Assembly: GCA_963422375.2 (NCBI GenBank)
Contig: OY729427.2
Coordinates: 288,001-352,000 of the forward strand
Origin: Bryobacterales bacterium
GTDB lineage: Bacteria; Acidobacteriota; Terriglobia; Bryobacterales; UBA6623
Reading direction: 5' to 3'
DNA length: 64,000 nt
The translations under genes and the position numbers were made by a program. This document shows positions 3,401-26,309 of this stretch, in pieces. Numbering within the stretch: the first letter of the stretch is position 1; every line of letters starts with the position of its first letter. Below the pieces are notes generated by a model. It had not been told where the DNA came from. It did not search any database and worked only from the letters and a program-made list of their open reading frames with translations.

Positions 3401-3691
3401 CTGCGCCCGCGCGACGTGCGCCATGCCTTCCTCGCGCTGCCCTGCCCGCAACAGCGCGAGACCGTAGTTGAGATGCTCGCGGGCGGAGCCGGGATTCAGG
3501 TCGAGCGCCCTCTTGAGTTGCTCCACCGCCTGCCGGGACGACCCCGGCGTCTCGTAGAAGGCCTTGCCGAGGTTCCTGACCTCTTGGAGCAGGACTTCCC
3601 CTGGGGAGTTCTCCGGGCTCTGGGCGGGCGCCAGCATCCACCACGTAGTTCCGCAGGCCAAGAGGGCGGTAAGCAAGAAAAGCAGCCTCAT
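485..3691 (-). CDS. Exported TPR + FG-GAP repeat + ASPIC/UnbV domain protein
   Basis: Likely start MRLLFLLTALLAC after GGGGA (ATG 3691); the ORF-track extension to 4027 is TnpB sequence. TPR helices (AHLNYG, YFNLG, YNLG), DxDxDG repeats, ASPIC-like GARVEV...FGLG...VRVTW, then a C-terminal GSCPMVYTWNG domain. Confidence 0.88.
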   Translation of the reverse strand: MRLLFLLTALLACGTTWWMLAPAQSPENSPGEVLLQEVRNLGKAFYETPGSSRQAVEQLKRALDLNPGSAREHLNYGLALLRAGQREEGMAHVARAQRIDRFLPHTYFNLGIEYKKAGEVEKAIDQFEQMQRLVPDEAKTQYNLGALYKQIGNIRRAIEKFERTIELDPSLAAPHFQLFGILRRSDPDRATQELEIFKGLKAATEDAAVGEDVDWSFYSELHDPSLATGAAVPAAAFDFSSRTVGRLAGAPLGALALDLDSDGEADALLWSEQGAVAILGGSADGPRPSRAALDGARHYGAGDFDGDGTADLCRVDGQGVQVLANRPGQSFESVFSLAGAFDLCLFADYDHDNDFDLFSLGRDKRLHRNDGDGTLTDATSEFPFAEGRVRAAATAELFEDNGHDFVAVYGESVAVHQDRKLGVYGDAVEVEGARVPGGSARMDVIDADHDGYLDVAVVTAGATLLLENRDGTLREGPSVARVEAWADFQLRGRFDVATAEGFLANGGRFGFAPVRGSAEVPAGPAAAADFNGDGRPDLVTAGPDGEVRFAENSPQGPNRGLVVRLEGVKSPAIGTGARVEVKAGLSYAKSVYSGLPLVFGLGRGGQFDTVRVTWANGLIQNETPDEPTSAIAIKEAPRLSGSCPMVYTWNGSEFEYISEVLGVAPLGASLARGVYFPVDHDEYVSIDGTQLRQRDGYLDVRLTEELRETAYLDKIRLIAVDHPEEIRIVTNEKAKGPPFPAFRLFGVGSKVLPVAATNHRGEDVLARVAASDRRYATFERDYANRAERHFLDLEFPEFAADDAVLFLEGWVDWASASSIVASSQTEESAILPPYLEIRHESGEWVTAVADAGVPGGTLRTIAIDLGGKFPGTSRRVRLVTNMCVYWDAVYIGLGTSELETRLTRLAPGRAQLRFRGFSRNYVAEGRGQPERFDYQQVSATSNWNPTPGLYTRFGDVRKLLDREDDRYVIMGAGDEIELRFPAAGLPALPAGWTRDYLLLVDGWAKENEANTAFGDSVEPLPFHSMSAYPYEAGERYPDTPQHRADLETIHTRPALRLLRPLVARSRAR

Positions 3692-3699
3692 TCGATCCC

Positions 3700-4878
3700 C
3701 TATTCTGAGCGCGCCGATAGTCGTCGCTGACTGAGGCGACTCTCGGCTGGACACCCGCCAGCGCGAAGGATGGAAGCAGGCCCAGGCGGGCTCAGAGCCT
3801 GCAGGGCGTCGATCGCAGCGCTGACGACCGCATCGCCCGAGTAGCCGCGGCGCTTGCACGCGTACCGCTGCCCCTTGCAGTTCGAGCGGTCCGCAACGCT
3901 GCACCGATGGCAACGCTGCGACGTACGATGGCAACGCTGCGACGTATAGGCGGGATCGATTTGCTCGAACCTGCGACCGACCCACTCTGCCTTGGATGCA
4001 AGCTGCCCTGTCAGCAATCCCCGACACTGCCTCGGAACCGAGCGATTCAAGCCAGACTTCCGCTTTACGTTCGGTTCGGGCTCATCGGCAGTGCCCGTCG
4101 CGGATCGCGCCATGTTGTTGATACTCGGTTGCCGCACCCGCTCCCCCCGCGTCCCGCTGCCTCTCTGGCAGCGGCTCACCGCTCGGCTGCGCTTGCGAGT
4201 CGTGTTATTGCCATCGGAATCAGCGACTCCCCTGATCCGCTCGCCATCGCTCAGGGCCAGTTGGTCCTTCGCGCCTAGGTCGATTCCTGCAGCGGAGGGG
4301 CTCGGTGCTTGCGGCTGCTTGTGGACGCCGTCGAGCACCAAGTCCACGTTCAGGCCGGCATCGGCGCGAGTGACGCGGACGAACTTGGGCTTGAGGCTAG
4401 GAAGCTCCCAGTCTGGCTTGATCGTGATCCGCGGCAGTCCCTTGATCCGCAGGACGGTTCGATCGTCAGCGCGCTCCCAGGGCCTGGGCGGCTCGAAGCA
4501 CTCGATGGTGCGGAACCGGCTGGCAGGCTTGAATCGCGGATACCCGGGTTTCCCGCCTGCCTTCCAGCGACCCAAGAACGCACTGACCACTCGCGAATGC
4601 GCGGCCATGCAGACCATGGTGTCGATCGTTCCGAGCCTCAGCGGCTTGGACTTGCGGAGTTCGGCCAGCTGGTTCCATCGATCTAGGCGGAGTAGCGACT
4701 GCTTGCGTTCCTCCCAAGCCGTTTTCCTCTCCGCCAGCGCCTTGTTGTAGAGCCAGCGCAACCAGCCCAGCACGGTGTCGATGCGAGCGTACCCGAACTT
4801 CGGGCAGTACCTGCGCTCCTGTAACGTGACCGTTGCCTTCACCAGCACTATCCCATGGCATGAGAGCCAGCGTGTCAC
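3700..4878 (-). CDS. tnpB: TnpB-family (IS200/IS605) protein, degenerate, probably nuclease-dead (copy 1)
   Basis: LYNKALAERKTAWE, KPGYPRFK, RuvC-I GIDLG, KSGLNRS, PAYTSQRCHRC. The RuvC-II EDL segment is deleted in frame and RuvC-III reads DAVVSAA. Confidence 0.85.
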   Translation of the reverse strand: MTRWLSCHGIVLVKATVTLQERRYCPKFGYARIDTVLGWLRWLYNKALAERKTAWEERKQSLLRLDRWNQLAELRKSKPLRLGTIDTMVCMAAHSRVVSAFLGRWKAGGKPGYPRFKPASRFRTIECFEPPRPWERADDRTVLRIKGLPRITIKPDWELPSLKPKFVRVTRADAGLNVDLVLDGVHKQPQAPSPSAAGIDLGAKDQLALSDGERIRGVADSDGNNTTRKRSRAVSRCQRGSGTRGERVRQPSINNMARSATGTADEPEPNVKRKSGLNRSVPRQCRGLLTGQLASKAEWVGRRFEQIDPAYTSQRCHRTSQRCHRCSVADRSNCKGQRYACKRRGYSGDAVVSAAIDALQALSPPGPASILRAGGCPAESRLSQRRLSARSE

Positions 4879-4917
4879 GCTACGAGAGGGAAATCATGCC
4901 ATTGCCTTGACGCGCTC
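3705..4917 (-). mobile_element. Non-autonomous IS200/IS605 (IS1341-like, tnpB-only) element, copy 1
   Basis: Similarity to copy 2 runs from the shared GAGCGCGTCAAG motif (4906-4917) to a shared TCAG end (3705-3708). Inverted repeat at 4855-4863/4894-4902. No tnpA. Confidence 0.65.
3905..3946. repeat. Perfect 21-bp tandem duplication within tnpB copy 1
   Basis: CGATGGCAACGCTGCGACGTA occurs twice and gives TSQRCHR-TSQRCHR in frame. Confidence 0.95.
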
Positions 4918-5399
4918 TGCGAGTCTCATAATACACCGGCGGGGCGCACCGAGACCGCGCCGTCGGCGACCTGGACCGGTACATGTCGCGGCTGCAACGG
5001 GCCGCAGTCCGAGGCGTGGAGAATTGCCTCCGGAGTCAGGGCGACAGGGAGACTCGGGCAAATTCATCGCAGGCGTCCTGCCCTGCGGGACGGCGTGCAG
5101 TTTCTGGACCGCGCGGTTCGGTCCGTCGACGGCGAAAGCGACTGGCTCCCTGCCAGAGCCGAGGCCGAACCCTTTCGGCCTGCGACTCGGGGAGGCGCAG
5201 GAGACGCTCGGCACTGCTTGGCAGGCTTGCTGGCCGCCCCGCGCCACTGCCGAGAGCCCGTCGCGGCTGTCGCGCCTGCCCAAGAACGGGGTCCGCCCGC
5301 CAGGTGCTCTCGGCGGCGTTTCGGAGAAGCCGCGCCCGCGCGGAGACCTCAGTCACGGTCGAATTCGGCGAACGGCTCGCCGCGGTAGGCCCCGCACGA

Positions 5400-6200
5400 C
5401 ATGCTCCCTCCTCTGAATTCGCGAATACCGCATAGGGCAGTTCGGACGCTGTCGCCGAGAACTGGATCACGGTGTCGTTGACATGCCCGAAGACGGACCC
5501 GTCCGTAGGTCGCCGCGTCTGACTTCCGTCTTCGTTCAAGATGCCCTGCCAGCTTCCGCCCTAGCCGTCGAGATCCTAGGCCAAGACCTCGGCCAATTGA
5601 CGACGGCCGAATCCGGTCAGGCTGGAGCTCGCTGGACGGGCCTCCGGCGCGGACTCCTGCACCCTTCGCTGACCCTCGCAGCGGATTCCGCGGCCGCAAC
5701 CCGGGTCGCACCCCATCCGTGCTTCCGGACCGCGAGCGGTATCGAGCGCCAGGCTGTTGCGGGTCGGCGCCAAGCCGCTCCGACTCGAGCTGGAGCCGAA
5801 CGGCAGACTGGATCTGGCCCAGGCCTTCGGCCCGCCGGTCGTGCTGAACTCAAGGCTGGAGGGCGCCTCGGATATCGATGTCATTCGGTTCCAGATACGG
5901 GCCGGCAAGGGGAGGATCTTCGAGGGCAGCGAAGCCCGGTACGGCCGCAGCTCAGGTGCGCCGATAGTCGTGGTCGGCAGCGAGAGCAGAGCATCTCGCT
6001 ACGGCGAGGATCGCGCAATCTGGGCTCCATTCTTCAGCTGTCGGTTCGAGCCCGACGGGTAGTACTGGCTAGCCCTGCACCCGACCCGCGGACAAGCCGA
6101 TCAAGGTTCGGATACCGGCGGGACGTCCACAAGATCTCCCGACTCAACGCTCGCGGCACGGCCCGCTCCGGGCCGTGCCGCGAGCCATTCCAGAAAAGCG
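5400..6200 (+). pseudogene. Degraded PPC (pre-peptidase C-terminal) domain protein
   Basis: Fragments across frames and stops: ELEPNGRLDLAQAFGPPVVLNSRLEGASDIDVIRFQIRAG...ARYG...PFFSCRFEPDG*YWLAL...FGYR. This resembles the E-x-EPN...AQ...NG...D-x-D-x-FRF...AG pattern. Boundaries approximate. Confidence 0.55.
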
Positions 6201-6209
6201 ACTCCTACG

Positions 6210-7349
6210 TCAGGATCGTTCCACTTCAAACCCCGAAATGTTGCGAGATTCTATGCTGAATTCCACGGAAATCAGGTAAACCCGCAGCTCCGCTGCCCGC
6301 CTCCGGTGACGGTCGGCACGTGCTCGCAGCCGGCGTCGGCCACGCCCCGGAAGCAGGCCGGGCCGTCGGAATGCACCTCCGTGCCGGGCTGCAAGTGCCG
6401 CCCGGCCCACGCTGCCAGCGTCTTCTTGCGGAAGCCCGCCACGCTGCTCAGGCGCATCCTTGCCGGCTTGCCGTCGGCGGTGACCTGCACGGCGGCCACG
6501 AACGGCGTCTGGCCCGCCGCGCCGCGACCGCGCTTGCCGCCGGTCCGCTCGCCAGTAGGCGTCGTCCACCTGCACGATGCCGCCCAGCGGCACGCGCTCG
6601 TCGCGCTCCTTCATCACTTGCAGGAGCTTGTGCTTCACCCTCCAAGCCGTGTTCCGGCTCACGCCCAGCTGCCGCGCCAGTTCCAGCGACGAAACGCCGT
6701 GCTGGCCCTGCGTCAGCAGGTGGATCGCCAGGAACCGGACGGTCAGCGGCAGCTTGGTGGCGGCGTGCTCGCAGGGCCCCTCGCTGCCGTAGCGCTGCAG
6801 GAACTTGCCCAGGCTGAGTCCCTTCTGGAATTGCACGCGATTGCGTTTCAGGGGCTATCCCCTTTCCTGTCAGAGATTTCCGACCTCCTTCAGCATAGCA
6901 TATCTTCGGCTGACGTTCGTTGGTAATCAGGTATGAATAAGCTCCAGCAACTCACTCAATCATTCGGGTCCAGTAGCATACGATGACACTACACTCTCTC
7001 GACACTCCGCTGCATCCAGTTGAGCCATCAGACTTGCATGCACGGAACCCGATTCCTTGAAGTGACCCGTTCCGAATGTCAATCTGACAACCGGATAGCA
7101 TTCGGACCAATTCCAATCGTCGTGTATTTCCAATCCTTCGAATACCTGCTGGTTGCCTTCGAACAACTCCTTGAGTGTGTCAAGAAACAAGCTCTTTCCA
7201 AATCGTCTCGGACGAGATAGAAAGTAGTGCTTTCCCTCGCGCACCATGCGTCGGATGTACGGGGTCTTGTCGACGTAATAGCAGCCCCGCTCCCGGAGGT
7301 CGCGGATCGTCTGTATACCGATGGGCAGTGGACATCTCGTCACGGGCAA
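6210..7349 (-). pseudogene. AAA-ATPase/PD-(D/E)XK nuclease gene interrupted by IS1595 and internally deleted
   Basis: N-terminus at 6932-7349 (LPIGIQT...YYVDKT...SRPRRFGKS...TGPE*LSELLELIH) and C-terminal tail at 6210-6280 (VYLISVEFSIESRNISGFEVERS) both match the intact paralogue at 9487-11040. Confidence 0.9.
6280..6931 (-). mobile_element. IS1595-family element remnant (transposase pseudogene, one end retained)
   Basis: KRNRVQFQKGLSL...TKLPL...SSLELARQLGV...AWRVKHKLLQVM...VQVDDAY, frameshift, then GKRGRGA...TPFVAAV...VHSDG. Zn-ribbon and C-terminus missing. Terminal-IR-like CCTGATTACCAACGAACGTCAGCC at 6908-6931, exactly at the AAA gene break. Confidence 0.88.
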
Positions 7350-7351
7350 GC

Positions 7352-7360
7352 ATTATACCA
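7352..7360 (-). promoter_or_regulatory. Extended -10 promoter (TGGTATAAT)
   Basis: Perfect TGnTATAAT 8 nt upstream of the GTG (7343) of the AAA pseudogene. Confidence 0.65.
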
Positions 7361-8147
7361 TTCCCGACAGCCGTGCGGATTCTTCCTTGTTTGACCTCCT
7401 GCCAAATCCGTGGAGCGGAGGCCTGCATGCACGATGGCGGCGACCCGGCTGCCGTCGGTTGGATCGCCCGGCCCTCGGAGATGTTGAAGCGAGATCCTCG
7501 AAGCGAGGTGTTTCCGACGCTGCACTGGAAGCTTGGCACTCACCCCAGCACACTCGATTGCAACGCCCGAGGCGTCGCTGCCAATGCAATTCGCCCAGCT
7601 GCGCTCGGACTGGAATTCGAATTGACCGAGGCGGCAATCGTCTCAGAGAGCGTCCGGCAGCCGTCTTGGCATCGAAGCCGCGAGCGAAGGGCCAAGCATC
7701 CAAGCACGCATTCCCCTACTCGGTCGGGCAATTCCTTGTCGGCCCCGACGCCTTCGGACACGGAACCACGGCAGTGGGGACATCGGCCGGGCGCTTCGCA
7801 GACCGGACTGGCAGGCGTCCAGTCGGACAGATGACCGGTTCGCGAGGACGCGCCCAAGGAACACGTCGCACCAGGTCCAGCACGAGGCTGGCGACTGGCT
7901 CCGTTTCCCGGAGGGTTCGCGAGGGGAGATCCTGAGCGACCAGAGAGCGCGTGCGGGGCGCGCGACGACGATTCTCGCGCAAGCGCCTTGAATGAAGAGA
8001 TGTCGCGAGACGGCGCGACAGCGGGCGCTCCGCGATCCAGTGGTCCGACACGCGAGATCCGGTGCATTCCCCTCGCAACCGCCGGAGAACGAAGCCATTG
8101 GCGCTCCAAGCGGAGGCAGCGCTGTGCGCCCGGACACTGGGCGGGAG

Positions 8148-8942
8148 TCAGTTCTTCATCGCTGTCTTGGGATTCTCCCTTACGCGGGCCTGCAGCCGTC
8201 GCATCCCCCTGAGCCACCGGTCGTAATCCGATGACTTTCTGCGCATGTACTCGAGAACCTCAGGATGAGGGAGGATCAAGAACCGTTCCTCCGCAAGCCC
8301 TTCGATCACTGCATCGGCCACGTCGAACGGCTCGATGGCACCAGGCGTCAGGAAGTTGTCCCGCTCCCCGCGCTCGCCTAGTAGCAAGCGCGTGCGCACT
8401 CCCTGCGGGCACAGCACGGAGACCTTCAGCCCTTGGCCGCCGTAAGTGACCGCTAGCCACTCGGCCAGCGCCACCGCGGCGTGCTTCGAGACGGCATAGG
8501 CAAGGGACCCGATTTGCGTCAGGACGCCGGCAGCCGACGCCGTGTTCAGGAGATAGCCATGCCCGCGTGCCGTCATCCGAGGCACCAAGATCCGCGCGGC
8601 GAGCAGGTGGGACCGGAAGTTCACGTCGAGCACACGCTCGAAGTCCGCGTTCGGCACTTCCGGGCCCCCAGGGTGCGAAACTCCCGCGTTCGAGCAGAAC
8701 AGGTCGATCGGGCCGCAGCGCGACTCCGTAGCCGCTACGAGATCATTCAACTCGGACTCCGAGGTGACGTCGGCGACATGCGCCTCCGCCCCGATGGTAT
8801 CGGCGGTCTCGCGAAGGGCTTCCGAATCGATATCAGACGCAATTACCGCTCGCGCACCCTCCCGTGCGAATCGCTCGGCGAGGGCGCGGCCGATGCCGCG
8901 GGCAGCCCCGGTTACGACGACCACCGCGCCTGAAACTTGCAT
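8148..8942 (-). CDS. Short-chain dehydrogenase/reductase (SDR)
   Basis: VVVTGAARGIG, SNAG, NTASAAG, YAVSK catalytic motif; GGAGG RBS before ATG 8942. Confidence 0.93.
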   Translation of the reverse strand: MQVSGAVVVVTGAARGIGRALAERFAREGARAVIASDIDSEALRETADTIGAEAHVADVTSESELNDLVAATESRCGPIDLFCSNAGVSHPGGPEVPNADFERVLDVNFRSHLLAARILVPRMTARGHGYLLNTASAAGVLTQIGSLAYAVSKHAAVALAEWLAVTYGGQGLKVSVLCPQGVRTRLLLGERGERDNFLTPGAIEPFDVADAVIEGLAEERFLILPHPEVLEYMRRKSSDYDRWLRGMRRLQARVRENPKTAMKN

Positions 8943-9040
8943 GAAATCCTCCCCCTGGCCAAGATGCCGGCGGCCCGGCGCCGTCGCTGCGACCAGTATA
9001 TTCAAGCTACTGGCGGGCTAGATGCGCGTAGGGACCTCGT

Positions 9041-9068
9041 GGCAGGTCGCATGCGCATGCGACCTGCC
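9041..9068. repeat. Perfect 28-bp palindrome
   Basis: GGCAGGTCGCATGC|GCATGCGACCTGCC with no spacer. Confidence 0.9.
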
Positions 9069-9486
9069 GTCGCCCCTTCACAGCGAATTCGCCTGAGGGA
9101 GGACGCTGCGAGCCTGGCTGGAGCGCACGACGACTGAGGGCGGTCGCGGACGCCCTAGACCGCCCGTCGGAGGCGTTGGCAAGGCCCCGATGCCTACCGG
9201 ACAACGTCACCGCCGCAGTTCAAGCCATGCTAAGCCGGTACGGCCAAGGCCCGGAGAGTCTGGCCGCGTCCGGGAGCCTCAAGCGCAAGACAGAAAAGAT
9301 GGGATCCTTCTCTAGCTAGCGGCATCCGGGAGCGCCTGTGAACCAAGGTGATCCATGGGTCACGTACAACGTCGCAGGCACCGACTTCACTCTCGAATCG
9401 CGCTCCTCGGCGCTAGCACGCTAGGACGAGGCACGGTCGCAACAGTGGAGATGGAGGCTCTCCGGGGATTGACTCGCGCCCGTGAC

Positions 9487-11040
9487 TCATCCTCGTTCGA
9501 CCTCGAAGGCTGTCACATTGCGCGCCTTCCTGCTGAATTCCACGCCAATCAGAAAAATCGTGTGGTCCGATCCGCGGTACTTGTCGGCGTAGCGTCTTGC
9601 CTTAAGCTGTTTCATCGCTGCTCCCCCGGAAGCCGACTCAACCATCTTGAACTCGAGCAAGTAAATGCTCTCCTTGTATCGCACTGCCATGTCCAAGCGT
9701 CCGAGACTGCTGCTGTCTTCGACAGTGATATCCAATCCAAGGGCCGCAAAATACGAATAGAAGACACTCGCATAATATCCTTCGTAGTTCGCAATTTCAT
9801 TATTCGTATGCCACTCGTACAGAATACTAGCAAACAACGATTGAAATAAGACCTTCATCTCACCGAAATCGCACGACTCCAACAGTCTGAAAAAGCGGAT
9901 ACTGCTAGTTCCGAGACGAGTTGTATCCTGAACCAAATAGCGGAGCAGACTTCGATTCAGACCCTGTCGTACTTCACGATTTGGATACCCTAGCCGGAAG
10001 AGTCGCTCTCCTCCTATTTCTTCTTCACCAACGATTGTCAAGTATCCTGTTTGGAACAACAGCGCCTCCGTTGCCATATCGTCGACATCGAACGTGGACA
10101 ATAGATCGCTACTAGCAATGAGATTGTCTAGATCCATTGATCGTACTTGACGTTTGAACAGCGTCTTGACCAAAAAGCTCGGAGTGCCCGTTTCAAACCA
10201 GTAGGACGAGAACCGACGATGGTAAAAGAGTAATAGAATGTCAAACGGGTTGTATACTTTCTCCTCACCGAGCCAACTGTATCCATTGTACCAGTGACGA
10301 ATATTCTTGCGATTTAACCCAGACAGTTCCGCTGAAAACACTCGATCCAAATCTTGGTCGGCATATCCGCAGATGGACGAATATCTTGGATCAATTGTGA
10401 TGTCGATTAGACTGTTCAGTCCAGAAAACAGATTCACTCGTGAAAACTTACTTACGCCTGTAATGAAAGAAAATATAATATGCGAGTCTGCATCCTTTAT
10501 GATCGAATAGATGCCACGAAGATAGTCTCGATTTGTGCGAGCGATCTCCGAATTATCCAGTGCATCCAAGATTGGTTTGTCATATTCATCGATGAGGACA
10601 GCAACCTGATTTCCCGACTTGCGATGGAGCAACTCTAGCAAGTGTCGCAGCCTTTCAGGTCCAGTATCGTAGCCTGAATTTACGTTTTCATGACGCTCCA
10701 CTGCATCTAGTTGGGCCATCAGACTGGTGTGAAGATAGCCTGCTTGATTGAAGTCACCGCTGCCAAAGCTCAGCCTTAGTACAGGATATCGGACAGTCCA
10801 ATCCCAAGAAGTTTGTATTGAGAGTCCTTCGAAAAGCGACCCATTCCCCTCGAATAGCTCTTTAATTGTGTCAAGCAACAAGCTCTTTCCAAACCGTCTC
10901 GGACGAGACAGGAAGAAATGCGTCCCGTCATCCAGAAGTCGTTGAACATACTGGGTCTTGTCCACGTAATAGCAGTCCCGCTCTCGAAGGCTGCGAAATG
11001 ACTGAATGCCAATGGGCAGCCTGCGTCTTGTCGCTCTCAC
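9487..11040 (-). CDS. AAA-ATPase-like domain + C-terminal PD-(D/E)XK nuclease protein
   Basis: LPIGIQSF, YYVDKT, Walker A SRPRRFGKS, Walker B VLIDEYDKP, YNPF, WFETGTP, GRLDMAV...LLEFK, QLKARRYADKY. Markedly lower GC than the flanks. Start GTG 11040 (ORF open to 11094). Confidence 0.93.
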   Translation of the reverse strand: MRATRRRLPIGIQSFRSLRERDCYYVDKTQYVQRLLDDGTHFFLSRPRRFGKSLLLDTIKELFEGNGSLFEGLSIQTSWDWTVRYPVLRLSFGSGDFNQAGYLHTSLMAQLDAVERHENVNSGYDTGPERLRHLLELLHRKSGNQVAVLIDEYDKPILDALDNSEIARTNRDYLRGIYSIIKDADSHIIFSFITGVSKFSRVNLFSGLNSLIDITIDPRYSSICGYADQDLDRVFSAELSGLNRKNIRHWYNGYSWLGEEKVYNPFDILLLFYHRRFSSYWFETGTPSFLVKTLFKRQVRSMDLDNLIASSDLLSTFDVDDMATEALLFQTGYLTIVGEEEIGGERLFRLGYPNREVRQGLNRSLLRYLVQDTTRLGTSSIRFFRLLESCDFGEMKVLFQSLFASILYEWHTNNEIANYEGYYASVFYSYFAALGLDITVEDSSSLGRLDMAVRYKESIYLLEFKMVESASGGAAMKQLKARRYADKYRGSDHTIFLIGVEFSRKARNVTAFEVERG

Positions 11041-11461
11041 GATATCCACCAACGAGGGCCGCAATGAGGGCAAAGTCCTGCCGTGTCCCGGCATGGTACG
11101 CGAGCTCCCATTGTGGAATAGTCAATTGCACGGTTGGCATAGCTCCGAGACAATGGCGCTCCCCGACCCGGCGAGCGGGCGAACAATCTCCAGTCCGTCA
11201 CTGCACCCGTCCGAACGCAGCAAACGCCTCTGTTCCCGTGCAGTCCGACACGCCTCACAAGCCTATCCTAGCAGTACGCCGAATGCACGCAGGGGCCGTT
11301 CAAGCGCGCTGGGGCGGAAACGCATCCGCGTCCCGGTGTCCCGTTGTCGGACGAGCAGATGCATCCCGCGCGACTTCGGCACGTCGCGGGGGGAGGGGGG
11401 CGACCGCACCGTTCCGGCCGCGACGGGTGCAAGAGGAGCCGCCCCTGATGCCCTTGGAATC

Positions 11462-14479: not shown

Positions 14480-15505
14480 GTGAAACGCATTCTAGTGCTC
14501 TTGCTCGCCATCTCGGCGGTGACTTTCGCGGCCGACAAGAAGATCGTGATTCGCGCCCTGTCCGGCGGCTTCGCCTACGACGACGACGCCATTGCCGCAT
14601 ACAAGAAGGAGGCCGGCAAGGACGCTGACATCGTCGTCGCGCGCTCCATGGAGCAGTTCGCGAAGGAGGTCGCGGACGCGGACGGAGTCGTTGGCGGCAT
14701 CAGCAAGGACCTCTTCCCCATGGCGAAGAAGCTCGCGTGGGTGCAGTCGACCAGCGCCGGCGTCGAGGCGTACAGCTTCTGGCCCGAGTTCATGCAGAGC
14801 GACGTCCAGCTGACGAACTGCAAGGTAGTCCAGGGCCCGACGATCGGGGACCACGCGTTCGCCCTCCTGCTCACGCTGACGCGCGGGATGTACGACTACG
14901 CACCCAACCGCCGCCAGTGGAAGTCGAGGAACGACGCTCCCAAGGGCATGACCGAGCTACCGGGCTTGACGGCGGTGATCATCGGCATGGGCGGCATCGG
15001 CATGCAGATCGCGCAGCGCGCGCATGGTTTCGGAATGGACGTGATCGGCGTCGACCCCAAGAACATCCCGGTCAGCAACTACGCCCCGACGATCGTGCCC
15101 CCGGACCGGCTCGACGAGGTTCTGCCGCGGGGCGACGTGGTGTTCGTGGCGGCTCCTCTGACTCCCGAGAGCGAGCATATGATCGCGTCCAAGCAGTTCG
15201 GCCTGATGAAGCAGGGCGCCTACTTCGTCGCGGTGTCCCGCGGGCGCCTCTACGACAAGGGCGCGCTGATCAAGGCCATCGACAGCCAGAAGCTCGCTGG
15301 GGCCGGCCTGGACGTGACCGATCCCGAGCCGCTTCCGGCCGACGACCCGCTGTGGCAGTTCGACAACATCGTAATCACGCCGCACGTGGCTTCCCACGCG
15401 AAGGGATCCGACACCCGGCGGCTGGGCGTGATTGCCGGCAATGTGGGCAGGTTTGCCCGCGACGAGCCGCTCACGCACCTAATCGACAAGTCGGTGGGCT
15501 ACTAG
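14480..15505 (+). CDS. D-2-hydroxyacid dehydrogenase family protein with N-terminal signal peptide
   Basis: IIGMGGIG, VSRG, LDVTDPEP, TPHVA; GGAGG RBS; N-terminus MKRILVLLLAISAVTFA. Confidence 0.92.
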   Translation: MKRILVLLLAISAVTFAADKKIVIRALSGGFAYDDDAIAAYKKEAGKDADIVVARSMEQFAKEVADADGVVGGISKDLFPMAKKLAWVQSTSAGVEAYSFWPEFMQSDVQLTNCKVVQGPTIGDHAFALLLTLTRGMYDYAPNRRQWKSRNDAPKGMTELPGLTAVIIGMGGIGMQIAQRAHGFGMDVIGVDPKNIPVSNYAPTIVPPDRLDEVLPRGDVVFVAAPLTPESEHMIASKQFGLMKQGAYFVAVSRGRLYDKGALIKAIDSQKLAGAGLDVTDPEPLPADDPLWQFDNIVITPHVASHAKGSDTRRLGVIAGNVGRFARDEPLTHLIDKSVGY

Positions 15506-16030
15506 CGCCGCGAGCGGCAGACCTTCTCCATCGCGTGGAAGCGATGGCCGCGCCGTGTTCGAGCGAGGCGGCCGGATGGCCTCCGCGGCACGGTTTCGCT
15601 TGATGCAGCAGCGTCCAGCGAGCCGGATCCAAGCCCCGCTCGGCGAGCGGGCCGCGCCCGCCTCCTCGGTGTCGGGGCCTTGGCGTAGCGGACTGTTACC
15701 GGTCGACCTTTCGCACGAGAAGCGGCTGTGGCGGGCATTGCGGCCGCCCCGAAGTCAAATCGGAGGGTTCCTTCGGCAGAGGGCGGTGTCGGCACGGGCA
15801 GGCAGACGCTGGCGATTTGGCGGCAGCGGGCAAAGGCGGGAACCTATGCGAAGCAACATGACTCCTGACAAGACGCTGGCGAGCGCACGCCGGCTCCCGA
15901 GACGGGCGGGCCGCAGAGAGAGACCTGTTGCGCCAAATTGAAACGGCATTGCAGCAGGGCTGCGGCGACGGCCCGGCCCTCCTGCAAGTCTCTTCGGAGC
16001 GTCGGTAGCGAGAGCGGCGGCCTGGGGACT

Positions 16031-18070: not shown

Positions 18071-18112
18071 GGCGGTCTCGCATCGATGATCGAGCCGACC
18101 CGTCCTGCCGGG

Positions 18113-21100
18113 TCAAAAGTAGAGCTTCAAGCCCATCTGGATCTGGCGCGACCGGTTCGCCGTCCCGAGCACCCGGCCGAAGTTCCCACGGCTGATGTTG
18201 GAGGATGGCGCGGCGTACTGCGGGGAGTTGAAACCGTTGAAGAACTCCACGCGGTATTCCATCCTAAACGTCTCCGTAAAGGAGAATATCTTGAAGAACG
18301 AGAAGTCGACGTTGTTGATTCCGTCGGCTCGCAAGGAGTTCCGCCCGGCGTTCCCGAACGTACCGGTCTGGGGCACTGCGAAGGCTGCCTTGTTGAGCCA
18401 TACGGCCGGCGTGGGGTTCGACGGATTCGGGTCGCCTACATAATCCGGCCGGTAGCGGCCGTTTGGCAGGCCGGTCCCGGCGATATCGCCGTTGACGTTC
18501 GGGGTGTAGGGCTGGCCCGAAGTGAAGAGCGCCAGACCGTTGAACTTCCAGCCTCCTAGGATCGCTTGCAGTGCGGGGCTGTCGAAGCGGAACGGCAGTT
18601 CGTACACCCAGTTGAAATTCAGGTTGTGCGTGAGGTCAATCCCGGACACGCTGCGATCCAAGTTGAAGTTGTAGGGATTCTGCTGGGAGCAGTTCTCCAC
18701 GAACCACCCGGAGCACCCGATGTCAATCGACTTGGCCCAAGTGTAGTTGACCATGAAGGCGAGGCCCTTGGAGAACCGGCGGTTGTACTGGGCCTGCAGG
18801 GAATGGTAGTTGCTGCGCCCCCACGACGTGAGGTAGTTGTTCGCGCGGAAGAGCGGGAACGGAGCGCGCTGGCGCGCCTCCGACGGCTTCCCGGGAGTGA
18901 GAGCGACGTTGTAGTAGGTCCCGAGCGGCATCCGGCGGTTGCCGGACCCGACGTAGTTGACTTGCAGCATGGTCGCGTCGTCGAGCTGGCGCTGAATGCC
19001 GAAGTTCCACGTCATCGAGTAGCCGTTGTCCATGCGCGGATCGGAGTACCAAGCCCCTTGGTTGTAAGGCGTGGCGGTAGGCAGGATGCCGGTCGGCGCG
19101 GGGTTCTTGGCGGAGACGTTCGGGACCGTGTCGGCCGGATTCGTGCCGTTCTGCAGCTTCCTGCCCACGTCGGGCCAGGTGTGCCCGAGATTCTGCGTGT
19201 TCTGCGTCACTCCGGCGAAGTTGTCGAAGAACACGCCGGTGGACAAGCGGATGGCTGTGCGCTCGGTCAACCTGTAGGCAAGACCCAGACGCGGCTGCCA
19301 GCTCTTCGGCCACGGGTCCTGGACGTATCCGTTGGCCGCGACCTGCACGCGGTCCGGGAGGGCACCGCTCGGATCGGGCAGGCAGGGCGCCACGCGCTTG
19401 ACCTCGCACGTGGGAGGAGCGGCGGTGATCCAGTAGATGCCGTCGTTGTAGTCGATGTTGCCGAACTCGACGGAGTTCTCCTCCGGATTCCCGAAGCGCG
19501 GGAGAACGGTGGCGTCTAGGCGCAAGCCGATGTTCACGGTCAGCTTCGGGGTGACCTTCCACGAGTCCTGCGCGAAGAAGGAATACAGAGCGCCACCGCG
19601 AGCGCGCTTATGAAAATCCCTCCTGGACCATGCGTTCGGGACGTTGAGCAGGAACGACGCCAGCGGATGGCCCGTGCTGCCGGGGCTGGCCGGGCTGGCC
19701 GTGCCGACCGTGCTGAAGTTGTTGGTGTGGTCGTTGGTCCTGCCGAAGTGGCCGATGATGTTGTACTCGGCACCGATCTTGAAGGTGTGGTTACCCGCAA
19801 TCTTCGTGTAGTCGCCCTTGTACTGCCACGTGTCGCTGGTGCGGGTGTAGCCGATGCGCTCGCCGCCCCCGAAGTACTGGGCAACGCCCACGTTCGGCAC
19901 GTAGGATGTCCCGCCGCGAAATCCGCCCGCGAATTCGGGGTTCCATCCGACGGTGGAGATGAATCCGTCGGGCACGTTCGCGAAAGAGTTGCCAGTGTCG
20001 CGCTTGACGTCCGTCCGCGCGAACGAGACCTGCAGGATGCTGGTCGGATCGAACGTATGGACCCAGTTGGCGGCGACATTCAGATTCTCGATGTCCACGA
20101 AGCTCGTGAGGCCCTGCCGCCCGGCTGACCCGGTCTGGTTGCTGAACTGGCCGCTCACGCGGACGAAGGCGGCGTCGGCATCGCTGAAACGGTGGTCTAT
20201 CCGCCCGGAATACTCGTCCTGGTCGAGGGCGGTACCCGTCGTATCGCGCTGATTGAGGTTCCCCAAGTCGGTGCCGAGGCTGATCGGCATCGGCACGGTC
20301 TGCTCGAGGTAGTAGAGAAATCCCGCGTCGAGCCGGCTCGGCGGAATGAAGTTGTTGCCGAAGGGTTCGCGCACGGCCTTCCCGTCCGGCCCGACGGTCG
20401 TCGAGTACGGATCGAAGATCTGCCTGCTCGAGTCGCTGAGGTCCCCGCCCCTGTTAGCCGCGGTGGGGACTTGATAGTTCCGATTGGCCGGAGCGCGGTT
20501 GGTGAACCGCTGGACCGCCGCGTAGTAGAAGGTCCTGTTCCGCACTACCGGCCCGCCGATCGTCGCTCCGAACATGTTCTGCACGAGCGACGCCTTGTCC
20601 TTGAGGAAGGTGTTGCGAGCATCCAGGTTGTCGTTGCGGTGGAACCACCAGCCGCTTCCACTGACCTTGTTGGCGCCGGACTTGGTCACAACGTTGACTA
20701 CCCCGCCGGTGACGCTGCCGAACTCGGCCAGGTCGTTGTGGGACTGGACCTTGAACTCCTGGATCGCGTCGATGATCGGCGGCACGGCGTAGGTGCTCGT
20801 CATCGTGCCCTGGTTGTTCACGCCGTCCGTCAGAAAAAGGTTGCTGCGGTTGTTCTGGCCGTTGATCGACGGGAAGCTGAACGTGCCCACGGACGTGCTG
20901 CCGAAGCCGCCCCGGCTCTGCGCGACGTTGACGGGCGAGGCGCCGGGCGTGAGCATGAGCAGCTGGGTGAAGTTGCGCCCGTTGAGCGGCAGGTCCACGA
21001 CCTGCTGCTCGGTCATCGCCGTGCCCAGTTCGGAGGACGACGACTGCACCTGCGCACCGATCGCCTCGACCGTCACGGACTCGGTGACGGCGCCGACCTC

Positions 21101-21454
21101 GAGGACGACGTCGAAGGTGGCAGTCTGATTGACCACCAGCGCGAACGGCTCGATGGCAGCGGTCCGGAACCCGTCCGTGGCGACTTCGATGGTGTAGTAG
21201 CCCGGCGGAATGTTGACGAAGACATAGCGTCCGACCGCGCTGGTCTCGGTCCGGCGCTCGATGCCGGTCTCCACGCTGGTCAGCAGGACCTCGCCGCCGG
21301 GCACGACAGCGCCCTGCTGGTCGGAGACCGTGCCATTGACACCCGAGCTGGATGCCTGCCCGAACGCCGCGGCCACGAAGGCCACTAGGAGACAGGCTGC
21401 CACTGTTGCTCCGCGCAACTCCGGAGAAGACCGTAGGTGTCTAACAGCTGTCAT
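18113..21454 (-). CDS. TonB-dependent receptor (Oar-like, N-terminal carboxypeptidase-regulatory-like domain)
   Basis: GTVSDQQGAVVPG, LPLNGRNFTQL, IDAIQEFKVQ, NVVTKSG, QPRLGLAY, C-terminal RQIQMGLKLYF. Confidence 0.95.
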   Translation of the reverse strand: MTAVRHLRSSPELRGATVAACLLVAFVAAAFGQASSSGVNGTVSDQQGAVVPGGEVLLTSVETGIERRTETSAVGRYVFVNIPPGYYTIEVATDGFRTAAIEPFALVVNQTATFDVVLEVGAVTESVTVEAIGAQVQSSSSELGTAMTEQQVVDLPLNGRNFTQLLMLTPGASPVNVAQSRGGFGSTSVGTFSFPSINGQNNRSNLFLTDGVNNQGTMTSTYAVPPIIDAIQEFKVQSHNDLAEFGSVTGGVVNVVTKSGANKVSGSGWWFHRNDNLDARNTFLKDKASLVQNMFGATIGGPVVRNRTFYYAAVQRFTNRAPANRNYQVPTAANRGGDLSDSSRQIFDPYSTTVGPDGKAVREPFGNNFIPPSRLDAGFLYYLEQTVPMPISLGTDLGNLNQRDTTGTALDQDEYSGRIDHRFSDADAAFVRVSGQFSNQTGSAGRQGLTSFVDIENLNVAANWVHTFDPTSILQVSFARTDVKRDTGNSFANVPDGFISTVGWNPEFAGGFRGGTSYVPNVGVAQYFGGGERIGYTRTSDTWQYKGDYTKIAGNHTFKIGAEYNIIGHFGRTNDHTNNFSTVGTASPASPGSTGHPLASFLLNVPNAWSRRDFHKRARGGALYSFFAQDSWKVTPKLTVNIGLRLDATVLPRFGNPEENSVEFGNIDYNDGIYWITAAPPTCEVKRVAPCLPDPSGALPDRVQVAANGYVQDPWPKSWQPRLGLAYRLTERTAIRLSTGVFFDNFAGVTQNTQNLGHTWPDVGRKLQNGTNPADTVPNVSAKNPAPTGILPTATPYNQGAWYSDPRMDNGYSMTWNFGIQRQLDDATMLQVNYVGSGNRRMPLGTYYNVALTPGKPSEARQRAPFPLFRANNYLTSWGRSNYHSLQAQYNRRFSKGLAFMVNYTWAKSIDIGCSGWFVENCSQQNPYNFNLDRSVSGIDLTHNLNFNWVYELPFRFDSPALQAILGGWKFNGLALFTSGQPYTPNVNGDIAGTGLPNGRYRPDYVGDPNPSNPTPAVWLNKAAFAVPQTGTFGNAGRNSLRADGINNVDFSFFKIFSFTETFRMEYRVEFFNGFNSPQYAAPSSNISRGNFGRVLGTANRSRQIQMGLKLYF

Positions 21455-21737
21455 GCATACTCCTCTTTAACTATGCGAACCTTCGGAGTCCCATGGAGCG
21501 CTCCAAGGCCCCATAGTCCACGCCCACCATAGGCAGTCTAGAGCCTAGCGGTCCGCTTCGTCAACCGCTGACTCGCCGGGCGCCCTCGCGACGCGCCGCG
21601 AGAGCCGACCGCAAGAACCGGATGGCCGGCGACAATGGAGCGAGACCGCGCCACGTCCGAACCGCGCCGCACGGCATGGCACCCTCTCGCCAGAAGACCT
21701 CGGCCGGAATCAGTCGCGTGGCGGGCCCGTCTCCGGC

Positions 21738-23507
21738 ATGACTCCGCGGACCTCCCGCCCGGCCCGCGCGGCTTGGATGGCGACGCTCGCCGCGACGATT
21801 CTCGGCCTGGCGGGGGAGCGCCTGCCGCTGCAGGCGCAGGGGATGTCCACCGCGAGGAGGACTGCGCTGCCCCAAGCCGCACTGCCCGAGGGGGTAATCC
21901 CGCCTCGCGCCGACTTCGCGGATATCGCGGACTCGGCGGGTCTCGGCAGCCACGATCGGGGCGTTCCGCTCGGGACCATGACCTATCTCCCCGAGACCAC
22001 TGGAACCGGCGTCGCTCTCGTTGACTACGACGGCGACGGCCTCCTGGACATCTTCCTCGTCGGAACCGGACGCAGCCCGGCCGACACCGAGGGACGGGCG
22101 CACGCCCTCTACCGGAACCTCGGGGACCTGCGCTTCCGCGACGTAAGCGACGAGGCAGGCCTCGAAGCCACCGGATGGGGCCAAGGAGCATGCGCGGGAG
22201 ACTTCGACGCGGACGGGCGCACGGATCTATTCGTCACTCACTGGGGACAGGACGCACTGCTCCGAAACGTCGCGGGGCAGGGCTTCCGAAACGAGGCCGC
22301 CGAGCGCGGACTGGCGGATGCCCCGTCCCGCTGGAGCAGCGGGTGCAGCTTCCTGGACTTCGACCTCGACGGCGACCTGGACCTGTTCGTGGCGCACTAC
22401 GTGGACTTCGACCCGGAGACCACACCGCTGCCGGGCGAGGCCCCGCAGTGCGAGTGGAAGGAGGTGCCAATCCCCTGCGGGCCGCGCGGCCTGCCCGCCG
22501 AGTCGATGGCTCTCTTCGCGAATGACGGCGAGGGGCGGTTCTCCGAGGTCTCCGAGAGCGCCGGCATCCGGACCGCCAAGCGGTTCCACGGCCTGGGCGT
22601 GCTCGCCTCCGACTTCGACGGGGACGGGTGGACCGACGTCTTCGTGGCGTGCGATTCGACCGCGAACCTACTGTTCCGAAACCGCGGCAATGGTGGCTTC
22701 GAGGAGATCGGCCTGGAGTCCGGAGCGGCCTACAACGAGGACGGCCAAGAGCAGGCCGGCATGGGAGTCGCAGCGGCGGACTACGACGGCGACGGCATCT
22801 TGGACCTCGTCGTGACGAACTTCGCCGACGACGCCAACACGATCTACCAAGGACGGGGGAACGCTCGGTTCCGAGACCGGACCGTGCGCGCTGGACTGGC
22901 GACCGTGACGGCCTTCGTGGGGTGGGGCACGGAATTCGTCGACTTCGACAGGGACGGCTGGCCGGACATCTTCGCAGGCAACGGACATGTCGCTCCGAGC
23001 GTGGACGGGGCGGGCATCGGCGAGAGCTTCGCCCAGCCCAGCCTACTGTTCTGGAATCGAGGGGACGGCATGTTCCACTCCATCTCGGACTCGGCGGGCC
23101 CCGGCGTGTCGGTCCCGCGCCCGTCGCGCGGCGCGGCTACCGGCGACCTAGACAACGACGGCGACGTCGAGATCGTGGTCGTGAATGCGGACGGCCCGCC
23201 CTCCCTGCTACAGAACCGGGACGCCGCGGCCGGGAACTGGCTGACAGTGCGAGCCGTGTCACGAGCCGGAAGCGACGCGGTCGGCGCGCGCGTCTCAGTG
23301 AGCGCCGGGGGCCGCCTACTCGCCGGCGAGGTTCGCAGCGGTGGGAGCTACCTGTCCCAGGGGGACCTCCGGCTGCACTTCGGGCTGGGCGCGGCGGACA
23401 CGGCGACCGTCAAGGTCACCTGGCCGACCGGGGAATCGAGCGCGCCCCGGGAAGTCCGGGGCAACCAGATGGTCACGCTCCGCGAGGGCGCGCAGAGCTT
23501 GCCATAA
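21738..23507 (+). CDS. CRTAC1-family protein (FG-GAP repeats + ASPIC/UnbV)
   Basis: DYDGDGLLD, DFDADG, PCGPRGLP, EQAGMG, SRGAATGDLDNDG, SGGSYLSQGDLRLHFGLG. Confidence 0.93.
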   Translation: MTPRTSRPARAAWMATLAATILGLAGERLPLQAQGMSTARRTALPQAALPEGVIPPRADFADIADSAGLGSHDRGVPLGTMTYLPETTGTGVALVDYDGDGLLDIFLVGTGRSPADTEGRAHALYRNLGDLRFRDVSDEAGLEATGWGQGACAGDFDADGRTDLFVTHWGQDALLRNVAGQGFRNEAAERGLADAPSRWSSGCSFLDFDLDGDLDLFVAHYVDFDPETTPLPGEAPQCEWKEVPIPCGPRGLPAESMALFANDGEGRFSEVSESAGIRTAKRFHGLGVLASDFDGDGWTDVFVACDSTANLLFRNRGNGGFEEIGLESGAAYNEDGQEQAGMGVAAADYDGDGILDLVVTNFADDANTIYQGRGNARFRDRTVRAGLATVTAFVGWGTEFVDFDRDGWPDIFAGNGHVAPSVDGAGIGESFAQPSLLFWNRGDGMFHSISDSAGPGVSVPRPSRGAATGDLDNDGDVEIVVVNADGPPSLLQNRDAAAGNWLTVRAVSRAGSDAVGARVSVSAGGRLLAGEVRSGGSYLSQGDLRLHFGLGAADTATVKVTWPTGESSAPREVRGNQMVTLREGAQSLP

Positions 23508-23626
23508 CGCTCGGACCCGACCCTGCCAGCCGCTCGCTCGCCTGCCTCCGGCCCGCGGCGGGCGCTGCCCCGCCAGCGGCGACGCAGCTGCGAGCGGGAT
23601 CCGGAGCGAGCCGCCATTCGGCCACC

Positions 23627-24899
23627 GAGCGCGTCAAGTGTCTTTGCGCGGAATCCTTGATGCTGCTTGACACTGGATTCTTGATCTCTGGGACTGAATC
23701 CAGCGAGCGCTCTAGCCACATTCCAAGAGCGCGGGTACTGTCGGAAGTCCGGTTACGCCCGGATCGACGCCGTGCTTGGCTGGCTTTACGACAAGGTGTT
23801 GGAGGAGCGCAAGAAGGCATGGGACGAAGACAAGCGCAACCTCTCGTGTTCCGACCAGCGCAGCCGGCTGCCGGAACTCCGCAAGGCGGAGCCGGCGATG
23901 CTCGGCAGCGCCTACGCGGAGGCGATCGAAGCCACGCTCGCACGGGTGGACAAGGCATTCAAGGCGTTCTTCCGGCGGTGCAGGACTGGCGAGAAGCCGG
24001 TCTACCCGCGGTCCAAGCCCGCTAGCACGTTCCGCACGATCGAGTGCTTGCGCCCGCCACGGCGCTGGAGGCGCGGCGGCGGGTACGTCCCGCGCATCAA
24101 GGTCCTGCCGCAGATCAAGATCAAGCCGCAGCGCGGGTTGCCGAGCCTCGAGCCGCAGTTCGTCCGCATCACCCGCACGGACGCAGGGATCAAAGTGAAC
24201 TTGGAGCTCCACGGCGTCCGCAAGCTGCCTCTGCCGCCGTCCGCATCCGCCGCGGGCATCGACCCGGGCGTCGCGGATCAGGTCGCAACCAGCGATGGCG
24301 AGCGTATCCGAGGCGTTGACGACACGGAGCATCGCAAGGCGACCCGCGAGCGCAGCCGTGCGGCCGCCCGCTCGAAGAAGGGACGCAGGACGCGCAAGAA
24401 GCGGGTGCGGGCACTCGGCACGTGTCCAAGCGCAACGCCTGCCATCGCAAGCCCGCGCGACCGGTCCGGAAGCACGGCACCCTCGTGGGCGAGGATCTGG
24501 CCGTCGAGACCATGACGCGTTCCGCGAAGGGCACCGCCGAGACGCCCGGAACGAACGTCAAGCAGAAGGCTGGACCGCATCGCTCGATCCCGAGCCAGTC
24601 CCGGGGATTGCTGCCAAGGCAGCTTGCGTACAAGGCCGGATGGGCCGGTCGCAGGTCCGAGCAGGTCCATCCCGCCCATACGTCGCAGCGGTGCCATCGA
24701 TGCGCCGAAGCGGACGGCTCGAATCGCAAGGGCAAGCGGTACGCCTGCAAGCGCCGCAGCCGCTCGGGCGATGCGGACGTCAGTGCGGCGATCAACGCGT
24801 TGCAGGCCCTGAATTCGCCTGCGGCAGCTTCCAACCGCGGCAATGGTCGCGGTGCTGCCAGGAATCGTCTCGGCCAGCAACGACTCCTGACACGTTCAG
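23627..24899 (+). mobile_element. Non-autonomous IS200/IS605 (tnpB-only) element, copy 2
   Basis: Starts at the shared GAGCGCGTCAAG motif. Inverted repeats at 23631-23638/23656-23663 and 23673-23680/23696-23703. Similarity to copy 1 ends at TCAG 24896-24899. Confidence 0.65.
23694..24899 (+). pseudogene. tnpB: tnpB pseudogene (frameshift near 24420)
   Basis: TFQERGYCRKSGYARIDAVLGWLYDK...KPVYPRSK...GIDPGV in one frame; VGEDL...PAHTSQRCHRC...DADVSAAINAL in another. No canonical start codon. Confidence 0.88.
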
Positions 24900-24911
24900 T
24901 AGCATATTGCC

Positions 24912-26309
24912 ATGCCAAGGCTGTCAAGACGAACTTTCCTCGGCGCGGCCGGAGGGGCGCTGGGCGCGGCGGGCCGGGCTCGGGCGCAAGCGCGCAAGCC
25001 CAACGTCGTCATCATCTACACCGACGACCAAGGCACCCTGGACGCAGGTTGCTACGGCTCCGACGACATCCACACGCCGAACATCGACGCGCTGGCAAGA
25101 CGCGGCGTCCGCTTCACGCAGGCCTACGCCCATACGGTCTGCTGCCCGTCCCGCTCGCAACTGCTGACGGGGCGTGTGCCGCAGCGCTCCGAGGTGATCA
25201 ACTGGCTGTCCAACCACCCTCTTGACGAGAACGGACGCAACATGCTCGCCAGCGAGATCACGCTGGCCGAGGTGCTTCGCGACAACGGCTACCGCACGGG
25301 ACTGTCGGGCAAGTGGCACCTGGGAGCGAAGCCCGGCCACCAGCCTCTCGACCAGGGCTTCGACGAGGCGTTCGGGCATCTGGGCGGGTTCATCGACAAC
25401 TTCGAGCACAAGTTCATGCACTCGAACCCCCGGCGGCCCCCGTTTCACGACCTTTACCGGAACGGCGAGGAGGTCGACGAGACCGGCAGGTACTTCCCCG
25501 ACCTAGTCGTGCGCGAGGCGACCCGATTCATCGTCGAGAACAAGGACCGCCCCTTCTTCCTGTACTGCGCGTTCAACGTGCCGCACTACCCCGAGCAGTC
25601 GGATCCGAAGTTCCAAAAGATGTACGACAGCATGGCGATGCCCCGCCGGTCGTACGCCTCGATGATCACCACCACCGACGACCGGATCGGACAGGTGCTC
25701 CACGCCTTGGATCTGTGGGGCCTGCGAGACAACACCATCGTTCTGTTCATGAGCGACAACGGGCACTCGACGGAGGAGTTCCGCAACTGGGACGTGAACT
25801 ACGGCGCGAACGGGGGCGGCGGCAACACCGGCCGTTGGCGCGGCGCCAAGGCCAGCATGTTTGAAGGCGGCATCCGCGTGCCGGCGATCCTCAGCCTGCC
25901 TGGCACGCTCCCCGCGGGCGAGACCCGCGATCAGGCGATCTCGAACATGGACTGCTTTCCTACGATCCTCGAGCTGTGCGGCATCGAGCCGCCCGACTAC
26001 GAGATCGACGGCTCGAGCCTGCGGTCCGTGCTGGAGTCGGCGAGCGCGCCCTCCCCACACCCGGTCTTCCATTGGATGTGGCAGACGCAGTGGGCGGTGC
26101 GGGAAGGCGCCTGGAAGCTGATCGGCAACGGCCGAGACACCACCGGGCTGCAGTCGAGGCACGCTCCGCGCAAGGAGATGGGCGAGCTATATCTCGCTAA
26201 CCTTGCCGACGAGCTGCCGGAGTCGGTCGATCACGCCCGGGACCGGCCGGACGTGGTAGCGAGGCTGAAGAGGCTGCACGACGACTGGCTCCGCCAAGTC
26301 ACTCCCTGA
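24912..26309 (+). CDS. Tat-exported sulfatase (formylglycine-dependent)
   Basis: SRRTFL Tat motif, PNVVIIYTDD, CCPSR, GKWHLG, SDNG, FEGGIRVP. Confidence 0.95.
   Translation: MPRLSRRTFLGAAGGALGAAGRARAQARKPNVVIIYTDDQGTLDAGCYGSDDIHTPNIDALARRGVRFTQAYAHTVCCPSRSQLLTGRVPQRSEVINWLSNHPLDENGRNMLASEITLAEVLRDNGYRTGLSGKWHLGAKPGHQPLDQGFDEAFGHLGGFIDNFEHKFMHSNPRRPPFHDLYRNGEEVDETGRYFPDLVVREATRFIVENKDRPFFLYCAFNVPHYPEQSDPKFQKMYDSMAMPRRSYASMITTTDDRIGQVLHALDLWGLRDNTIVLFMSDNGHSTEEFRNWDVNYGANGGGGNTGRWRGAKASMFEGGIRVPAILSLPGTLPAGETRDQAISNMDCFPTILELCGIEPPDYEIDGSSLRSVLESASAPSPHPVFHWMWQTQWAVREGAWKLIGNGRDTTGLQSRHAPRKEMGELYLANLADELPESVDHARDRPDVVARLKRLHDDWLRQVTP

Follow-up and report, generated by a model that had tools for sequence, protein, structure and literature searches.

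Decayed tnpB elements with IS630-type ends lie at pre-existing promoter and start signals in a Bryobacterales genome

We analysed two TnpB elements in a 64,000-nt stretch of DNA from a Bryobacterales bacterium (assembly GCA_963422375.2, contig OY729427.2, positions 288,001 to 352,000 of the forward strand; hereafter the window), together with the other copies of their family in the same genome, which has a GC content of 67%. Each of the two elements ends 12 or 13 nt ahead of the start codon of a host gene. We conclude that they are decayed, non-autonomous tnpB elements with IS630-type ends, likely mobilised by an IS630 transposase. Ends of this type go into TA dinucleotides, and the old copies still present are probably the ones that did not stop expression of the adjacent host gene. 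The two elements are likely not RNA-guided regulators of these genes.

A reading made from the sequence only had reported that the 3' ends of the two copies align, with the likeness ending at TCAG (3705 on the minus strand and 24899 on the plus strand), and this was confirmed. The right end of copy 1 is followed by AATAGGGGATCGA and the ATG at 3691 (13 nt), and that of copy 2 by TAGCATATTGCC and the ATG at 24912 (12 nt), again as reported. The genes behind them code for a TPR/FG-GAP protein (copy 1) and a sulfatase (copy 2), and both are co-oriented with the element. Contigs from public runs, which may include the source data of the window, matched the copy 1 region without differences (in one piece in 3 of 4 runs) and likewise both junctions of copy 2 (run X1), and no joint bypassing either element was found in them.

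About 20 tnpB-like stretches were present in the genome, and the family comprised about 25 decayed copies with the TnpB domains PF07282, PF01385, and PF12323. Terminal inverted repeats were found at both ends of both window copies and of the other full copies, the left ends being the reverse complement of the right ends and located 60–110 nt ahead of the gene. In well-preserved copies a TA lies outside both repeats, as on both sides at C1:823230, 1750064, and 1815234. TA was retained at 13/25 right ends and 5/13 left ends; it is partly decayed in copy 2 and fully decayed in copy 1. Remnants of DDE_3 (IS630) transposase genes adjoin near-identical repeats in the same genome, and related repeats flank several miniature elements as well as three DDE_3 frames of 349 aa.

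Solo tnpB genes of the IS200/IS605 family are labelled IS1341-type. Our elements share with them the TnpB domains and a gene whose 3' end overlaps the right end. The hallmark of that family, asymmetric ends without target duplication, was not seen; instead there are inverted repeats and a target duplication, and a search for Y1 transposase gave no match in the genome (96.4% complete). The earlier assumption of IS605-type ends was not supported, because inverted repeats with TA duplication at the ends are of the IS630 type. IS630-family elements insert into TA and duplicate it, as described for ISY100 (PMC2170065). The present elements share the terminal inverted repeats and TA duplication with these IS630/Tc1-mariner elements, but are non-autonomous and carry tnpB as a passenger.

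The copies were old. Among 17 aligned copies, divergence from the family majority was 11–34%, with 18 stops and a pooled ratio of non-synonymous to synonymous substitution (dN/dS) of 0.55, which is a mixture of earlier purifying selection and later decay. All 8 near-full-length copies had a break or an altered RuvC motif, and an intact nuclease is not among the copies that were examined over their full length. In protein searches, the top scores (up to 701 bits) belonged to the genome's own copies and fragments; an intact close relative was not identified in these searches, where the best near-full-length outsiders reached at most 315 bits. Another IS1595-family element was found repeatedly inserted about 20 nt within IS630-type terminal repeats (C2:2917886-2918945, C2:3268195-3270444, C2:3024504-3025802, and C2:3555395-3556692), in one case at a tnpB right end.

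The features of copy 2 and its host gene are as follows.

23625–24899, plus strand: copy 2, decayed non-autonomous tnpB element of 1275 bp with IS630-type ends
23623–23642, plus strand: left target dinucleotide CA (presumed decayed TA) and left terminal inverted repeat of copy 2
23694–24883, plus strand: tnpB pseudogene of copy 2, with a 19-nt frameshifting deletion and altered start and stop codon positions
24834–24853, plus strand: conserved predicted hairpin near the right end, candidate stem of an omega-RNA scaffold
24882–24899, plus strand: right terminal inverted repeat of copy 2
24900–24905, plus strand: host -10-type box TAGCAT; its TA is the target that was duplicated, and the ATG follows after 6 nt (leaderless layout)
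24912–26309, plus strand: host sulfatase gene, 465 aa

Element-free orthologues of the sulfatase gene carried TAGCAT or TAGGAT 5–7 nt before the start in 23 of 24 cases, and the 24th fits the pattern on the complement of the strand that was read. The element was absent from all 24 orthologue loci, and the upstream gene was common to 12 of them. The earlier description of TAGCAT as -10-like was thus borne out by a -10-type box conserved across the orthologues, and copy 2 appears to sit at the TA of an older leaderless promoter. The spacing of 12 nt (6 + 6) follows from insertion at the TA of the existing TAGCAT-N6-ATG promoter. The guaB copy is alike, with the box in 12/13 element-free orthologues (judged by eye), and so is the copy at C2:477538, with the box at 5/5 loci inspected.

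Such promoters are common in this host. TANNNT peaked at 12 and 13 nt before predicted starts (91 and 83 of 3169 genes), against mostly 15–25 genes at other distances, and no -35 enrichment was found in 226 such TANNNT promoters. In high-GC bacteria, leaderless genes are marked by TANNNT about 12 bp ahead of the start codon (Zheng et al. 2011, PMC3160421). The spacing in the host does not differ from that of these TA-led genes, and the 12 nt at copy 2 are due to this property of the host. The sulfatase gene would still be transcribed, because the box is intact and leaderless promoters show no -35 signal.

At copy 1, the arrangement was different, as seen from the following features.

3705–4919, minus strand: copy 1, decayed non-autonomous tnpB element of 1215 bp with IS630-type ends
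4902–4919, minus strand: left terminal inverted repeat of copy 1, outer dinucleotide CG instead of TA
3705–3722, minus strand: right terminal inverted repeat of copy 1, outer dinucleotide AA instead of TA
3700–4878, minus strand: tnpB remnant of copy 1, open frame of 392 codons
4928–4933, minus strand: putative native -10-type box TATTAT of the TPR/FG-GAP gene, its function judged from conservation
3701–3703, minus strand: ATA, probable former start codon and insertion point (ATG there in 20/24 orthologues)
485–3691, minus strand: host gene for a TPR / FG-GAP repeat protein, 1068 aa
3751–3770, minus strand: conserved predicted hairpin near the right end, candidate stem of an omega-RNA scaffold

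In element-free orthologues of the TPR gene, TANNNT was found 16–20 nt ahead of an ATG in 21/24. When a profile of this motif was applied, it peaked not at the right junction but 14 nt left of copy 1 (whose left junction is exact to about 3 nt), at TATTAT (4933-4928; 12.4 bits, frequency 3.4e-5 in the genome). The ATG of 20/24 orthologues lies four codons before the position of the window ATG. The window codon there is ATA, which begins one base past the end of copy 1. Copy 1 would therefore have landed downstream of the -10 box, in a TA overlapping the old start codon, which would have been lost. The TPR gene would now use a second ATG behind a GGGG run and be reached by transcription through the element. 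The spacing of 13 nt is a coincidence, because the native -10 lies to the left and the insertion is at the old start codon. The matching spacings of 12 and 13 nt thus have different causes.

The junction sequence CAGAAT had been proposed as a -10 box of this gene, which was not supported, the native box being at 4928-4933. We also considered the junction as a TAGAAT box that had lost 3 nt. This was rejected since the native box matches the left flank instead, and it is also contradicted by the orthologues, which carry ATG at the codon directly after the junction.

To see the placement over the whole genome, 25 right ends were collected: a profile search gave 24 hits, two ends displaced by other insertion sequences were dropped, one of these was restored at its displaced position, and two truncated copies were added. 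Left ends numbered 13, after three weak or displaced hits were left out. Controls were 45 non-tnpB ends of the same terminal inverted repeat family. Since the left end C1:838285 was ambiguous and was also in the control list, tests were run with and without it. Gene starts were taken from our own dicodon model (4207 genes).

The outward flank began with TANNNT at 10/25 right ends, 0/13 left ends, and 8/45 control ends (right versus left, p 0.008, or 0.015 without C1:838285), and the background at intergenic TA was 21.7%. When only ends that keep their TA were counted, the figures were 10/13 for right ends and 8/41 for controls (p 0.0003), a difference exaggerated by the tendency of functional boxes to retain TA. 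TANNNT with a co-oriented predicted start within 60 nt was seen at 8/25 right ends versus 2/45 controls (Fisher p 0.003) and at 1.9% of 70,422 intergenic TA sites (binomial p 1.6e-8). The two window copies had suggested that insertion or survival favours the regions of promoters and starts and that it is the right end that faces the gene; this bias holds genome-wide above chance. The distance of 12–13 nt stood only in part: it is the mode and not a rule, as distances spread from 11 to over 200 nt. The orientation is probably not set by replication, as neighbouring copies lie on opposite strands (C1:292k minus and 312k plus; 823k plus and 836k minus). At C1:835898, the TAGACT box in the flank is intact, and the gene behind it, for a HAD-like hydrolase, is split over two frames.

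The explanation that we consider probable starts from the ends, TA flanks, decay, pre-existing host signals, and right-end polarity observed above. In a genome of 67% GC, an intergenic TA would often be part of a -10 box. Insertion at the TA of such a box would duplicate the TA and leave the whole box downstream of the element. The surviving old copies would be the harmless placements, in which the neighbouring gene is still expressed. The polarity would most likely come from long-term selection for elements transcribed in the direction of the host gene.

Relatives in the genus bear on this explanation. Genomes with related TnpBs numbered 13/30; these TnpBs were often intact and were 41–48% identical to the family majority. 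Their elements have a different inverted repeat and 8-bp duplications, common to IS1595-family transposase elements. Intact tnpB-only elements with IS1595-type repeats and 8-bp duplications measured 1.27–1.43 kb (same-genus loci L062-L090, L116-L134, and L156-L185). For 29 of the relatives' elements (a sample of those listed, of which one is a false pairing), a -10-like hexamer was found at the target in 14, versus 8/35 IS1595 copies (p 0.04, a cross-genome value that overstates the difference because kin are not independent). Their right end is a C run, and a G that directly precedes the left target copy is a possible target-adjacent motif (TAM) on a symmetric element. Four IS1595 elements (L136, L137, L138, and L139) had cargo resembling DNA methyltransferases and nucleases (translations judged by eye).

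We considered it unlikely that the polarity dates from the active phase of the elements, whether because the target preference of the transposase was asymmetric or because TnpB retained only insertions with a suitable TAM in the left flank. TnpB does promote retention in IS200/IS605 elements (10.1101/2023.03.14.532601), and in the relatives' IS1595-ended tnpB elements G was directly 5' of the left target copy in 27/29, compared with 4/29 at the mirror position. However, IS1595 copies without tnpB were also G-rich (19/35 left and 27/35 mirror). The G motif was not shown to be a TAM because tnpB-free copies prefer G too, and as a candidate TAM it was rejected as inseparable from the transposase preference. 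In the genome studied here, the sole preference seen in left flanks was for C or T before TA. It agrees with the preference of IS630 for CTAG (named in a reference title in PMC2170065) but gives no polarity by itself.

Several points weigh against selective survival of harmless placements as the explanation. The intact tnpB elements of the relatives showed little polarity, with a -10 box only forward in 6 and only reverse in 4 of the 29. The next gene was co-oriented at 19/25 right ends versus 27/45 controls, which is not significant (p 0.20). Ends that keep their TA are enriched for functional boxes by construction, and the dicodon model puts some starts wrongly. The ends themselves do not account for the polarity: the two inverted repeats are nearly symmetric, and no hybrid -35 is formed. 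Even the closest relatives share only about 80% protein identity, so that none of them supplies an exact empty allele.

The sequence-only reading had raised the possibility that the elements act as RNA-guided regulators. TldRs are nuclease-dead TnpB proteins without transposon ends and with conserved gene associations, and the fliC case targets a distant locus (10.1101/2023.11.30.569447). On this model, a nuclease-dead TnpB with its omega-RNA would bind the adjacent promoter or start region and regulate the gene. The likeness lies in the RuvC inactivation and in predicted guides over the -10 or start regions; in addition, copy 1 has an open frame of 392 codons with an inactivated RuvC, and a conserved hairpin, with some two-sided changes, lies 45–65 nt inside the right end. 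The hairpin may have been part of an ancestral omega-RNA. In contrast to TldRs, the present copies retain transposon ends and are species-specific, and no distant exact target was found for them. RNA-guided regulation was not supported because neither tnpB gene is intact (copy 2 carries a frameshift; copy 1 lacks 34 internal residues and has diverged from the family majority, by 17% of the non-synonymous sites), tnpB was not found in 77 orthologue loci, and none of the 25 flanks had a second exact 16-nt match in the genome (exact matches only). For the first 10 nt of the flank, copy 1 had no second match and copy 2 had one. Moreover, guide-matching DNA in cis is preceded by the element's own end and not by the original flank. 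We regard regulation of this type as very improbable.

The open frame of copy 1 may have another meaning. Its indels are in-frame only (-9, -102, and +21) and its stop lies 8 nt ahead of the host ATG, while the 34 lost codons include the RuvC-II motif and the RuvC-III Asp and zinc-finger Cys residues are changed. Near-full-length copies with a co-oriented gene and no intact box in the right flank were three: copy 1, the trpD copy, and the metE-like copy. The trpD copy (C1:823230-824535), between divergent sucC-like and trpD genes, has a 434-codon frame without indel or stop, and the conserved upstream box is found 39 nt left of the element. On the opposite strand, a -10-type box seems to be divided by the TA at which this copy sits. 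At the metE-like copy (C2:38500-39719), ahead of a cobalamin-independent methionine-synthase-like gene, the -10 box and ATG that are present in 5/5 relatives are altered, and the right repeat contains an ATG that overlaps the tnpB stop and shares the reading frame of the gene. At C2:1260588 and C1:1376524, this ATG of the right repeat likewise shares the frame of the next gene.

These three copies had no stops or frameshifts over 825 substitutions, where about 19 were predicted from the rate of the other 14 copies, and the other five long copies had 1–7 breaks each (Fisher p 0.018). The open frames suggest translated read-through. Untranslated RNA is terminated early (polarity). Translating ribosomes would bring the message across the 1.2 kb of foreign sequence while the TnpB protein decays. 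We tentatively propose, at somewhat less than even odds, that selection keeps dead tnpB frames open as translated leaders where the element parts a gene from its promoter (copy 1 and the trpD copy) or has replaced its start signals (the metE-like copy); that the inverted repeat donates the start codon of the metE-like gene is part of this proposal and is held just as tentatively. Against it, the grouping of the three copies was post hoc, and some substitutions predate insertion. At C2:652k, where no co-oriented gene is close by, two early breaks are followed by 391 open codons, and at C1:1810k a partial copy is unbroken before a convergent gene. Two other arguments for selection were discarded. 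In-frame indels are no proof, as 5–8 nt direct repeats in the frame are already 58–81% in phase, and the overall stop deficit (18 versus 55 simulated) is none either, as a weaker deficit was seen in the other five frames too. Only the contrast per copy was used for the open-frame case.

The metE-like gene, with its altered native box and ATG and its in-frame ATG in the right repeat (C2:39719), also favours co-option of the elements as portable promoters or start signals, in which the right end would supply what the downstream gene needs. Right ends recovered (25) also outnumbered left ends (13), although the recovery models for the two ends differ in sensitivity. The proposal of portable promoters was not supported, because the -10 boxes are older than the insertions, as at copy 2, the guaB copy, and C2:477538, and scans found no sigma-70-type site at either junction; nor does the right end contain a -35 at 16–18 nt spacing. 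A hybrid promoter from the TTG-containing hexamer of the repeat was rejected, as this hexamer is 7 nt from the TA, not 16–18, and scans gave 0 sites. We consider such co-option quite improbable, though less so than regulation by a TldR-like protein.

TnpBs with symmetrical IS630 ends and solo TnpBs moved in trans have been described (Altae-Tran et al. 2023, PMC10691335). Our elements resemble the IS630-linked TnpBs of the DDE-6 branch, in which symmetrical ends bound tnpB and its 3' end is near the transposon end, and the solo TnpBs mobilised in trans, in which the ends resemble those of transposase-bearing elements. In contrast, the copies examined here are all decayed with no transposase inside, the likeness is one of ends and layout, and relatives at 41–48% identity use IS1595-type ends. 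Promoter placement is not discussed in the part of that paper available to us. Meers et al. (10.1101/2023.03.14.532601) report that neither TnpB nor IS630 is biased in its orientation to the upstream gene; in our set it is the downstream side that shows a bias. Titles and abstract openings, mostly outside subscription papers, contained nothing on TnpB elements that occupy -10 boxes or that are bounded by IS1595 ends. The element type has thus been known since 2023, and what remains to be explained is the right-end polarity of the old copies and the open frames.

Elsewhere in the window, an AAA-ATPase with a PD-(D/E)XK domain is encoded at 9487-11094 (minus strand). A DUF932 protein at 27224-28066 (plus strand) adjoins a 964-aa frame without Pfam match at 28455-31349 (plus strand), and a tRNA gene, the one Rfam hit in the window, lies near this region at 33298-33373 (minus strand).

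A TnpB guide over a promoter can arise simply from a TA-targeting element landing in -10 boxes of a GC-rich genome with many leaderless genes. Screens for RNA-guided regulators therefore need a control for landing at TA and -10 boxes. The set of copies is a natural experiment on which promoter-side insertions survive, and with it one can test whether pseudogene frames stay open for the sake of read-through. Within a genus, moreover, one TnpB group is seen to use the ends of two transposase families.

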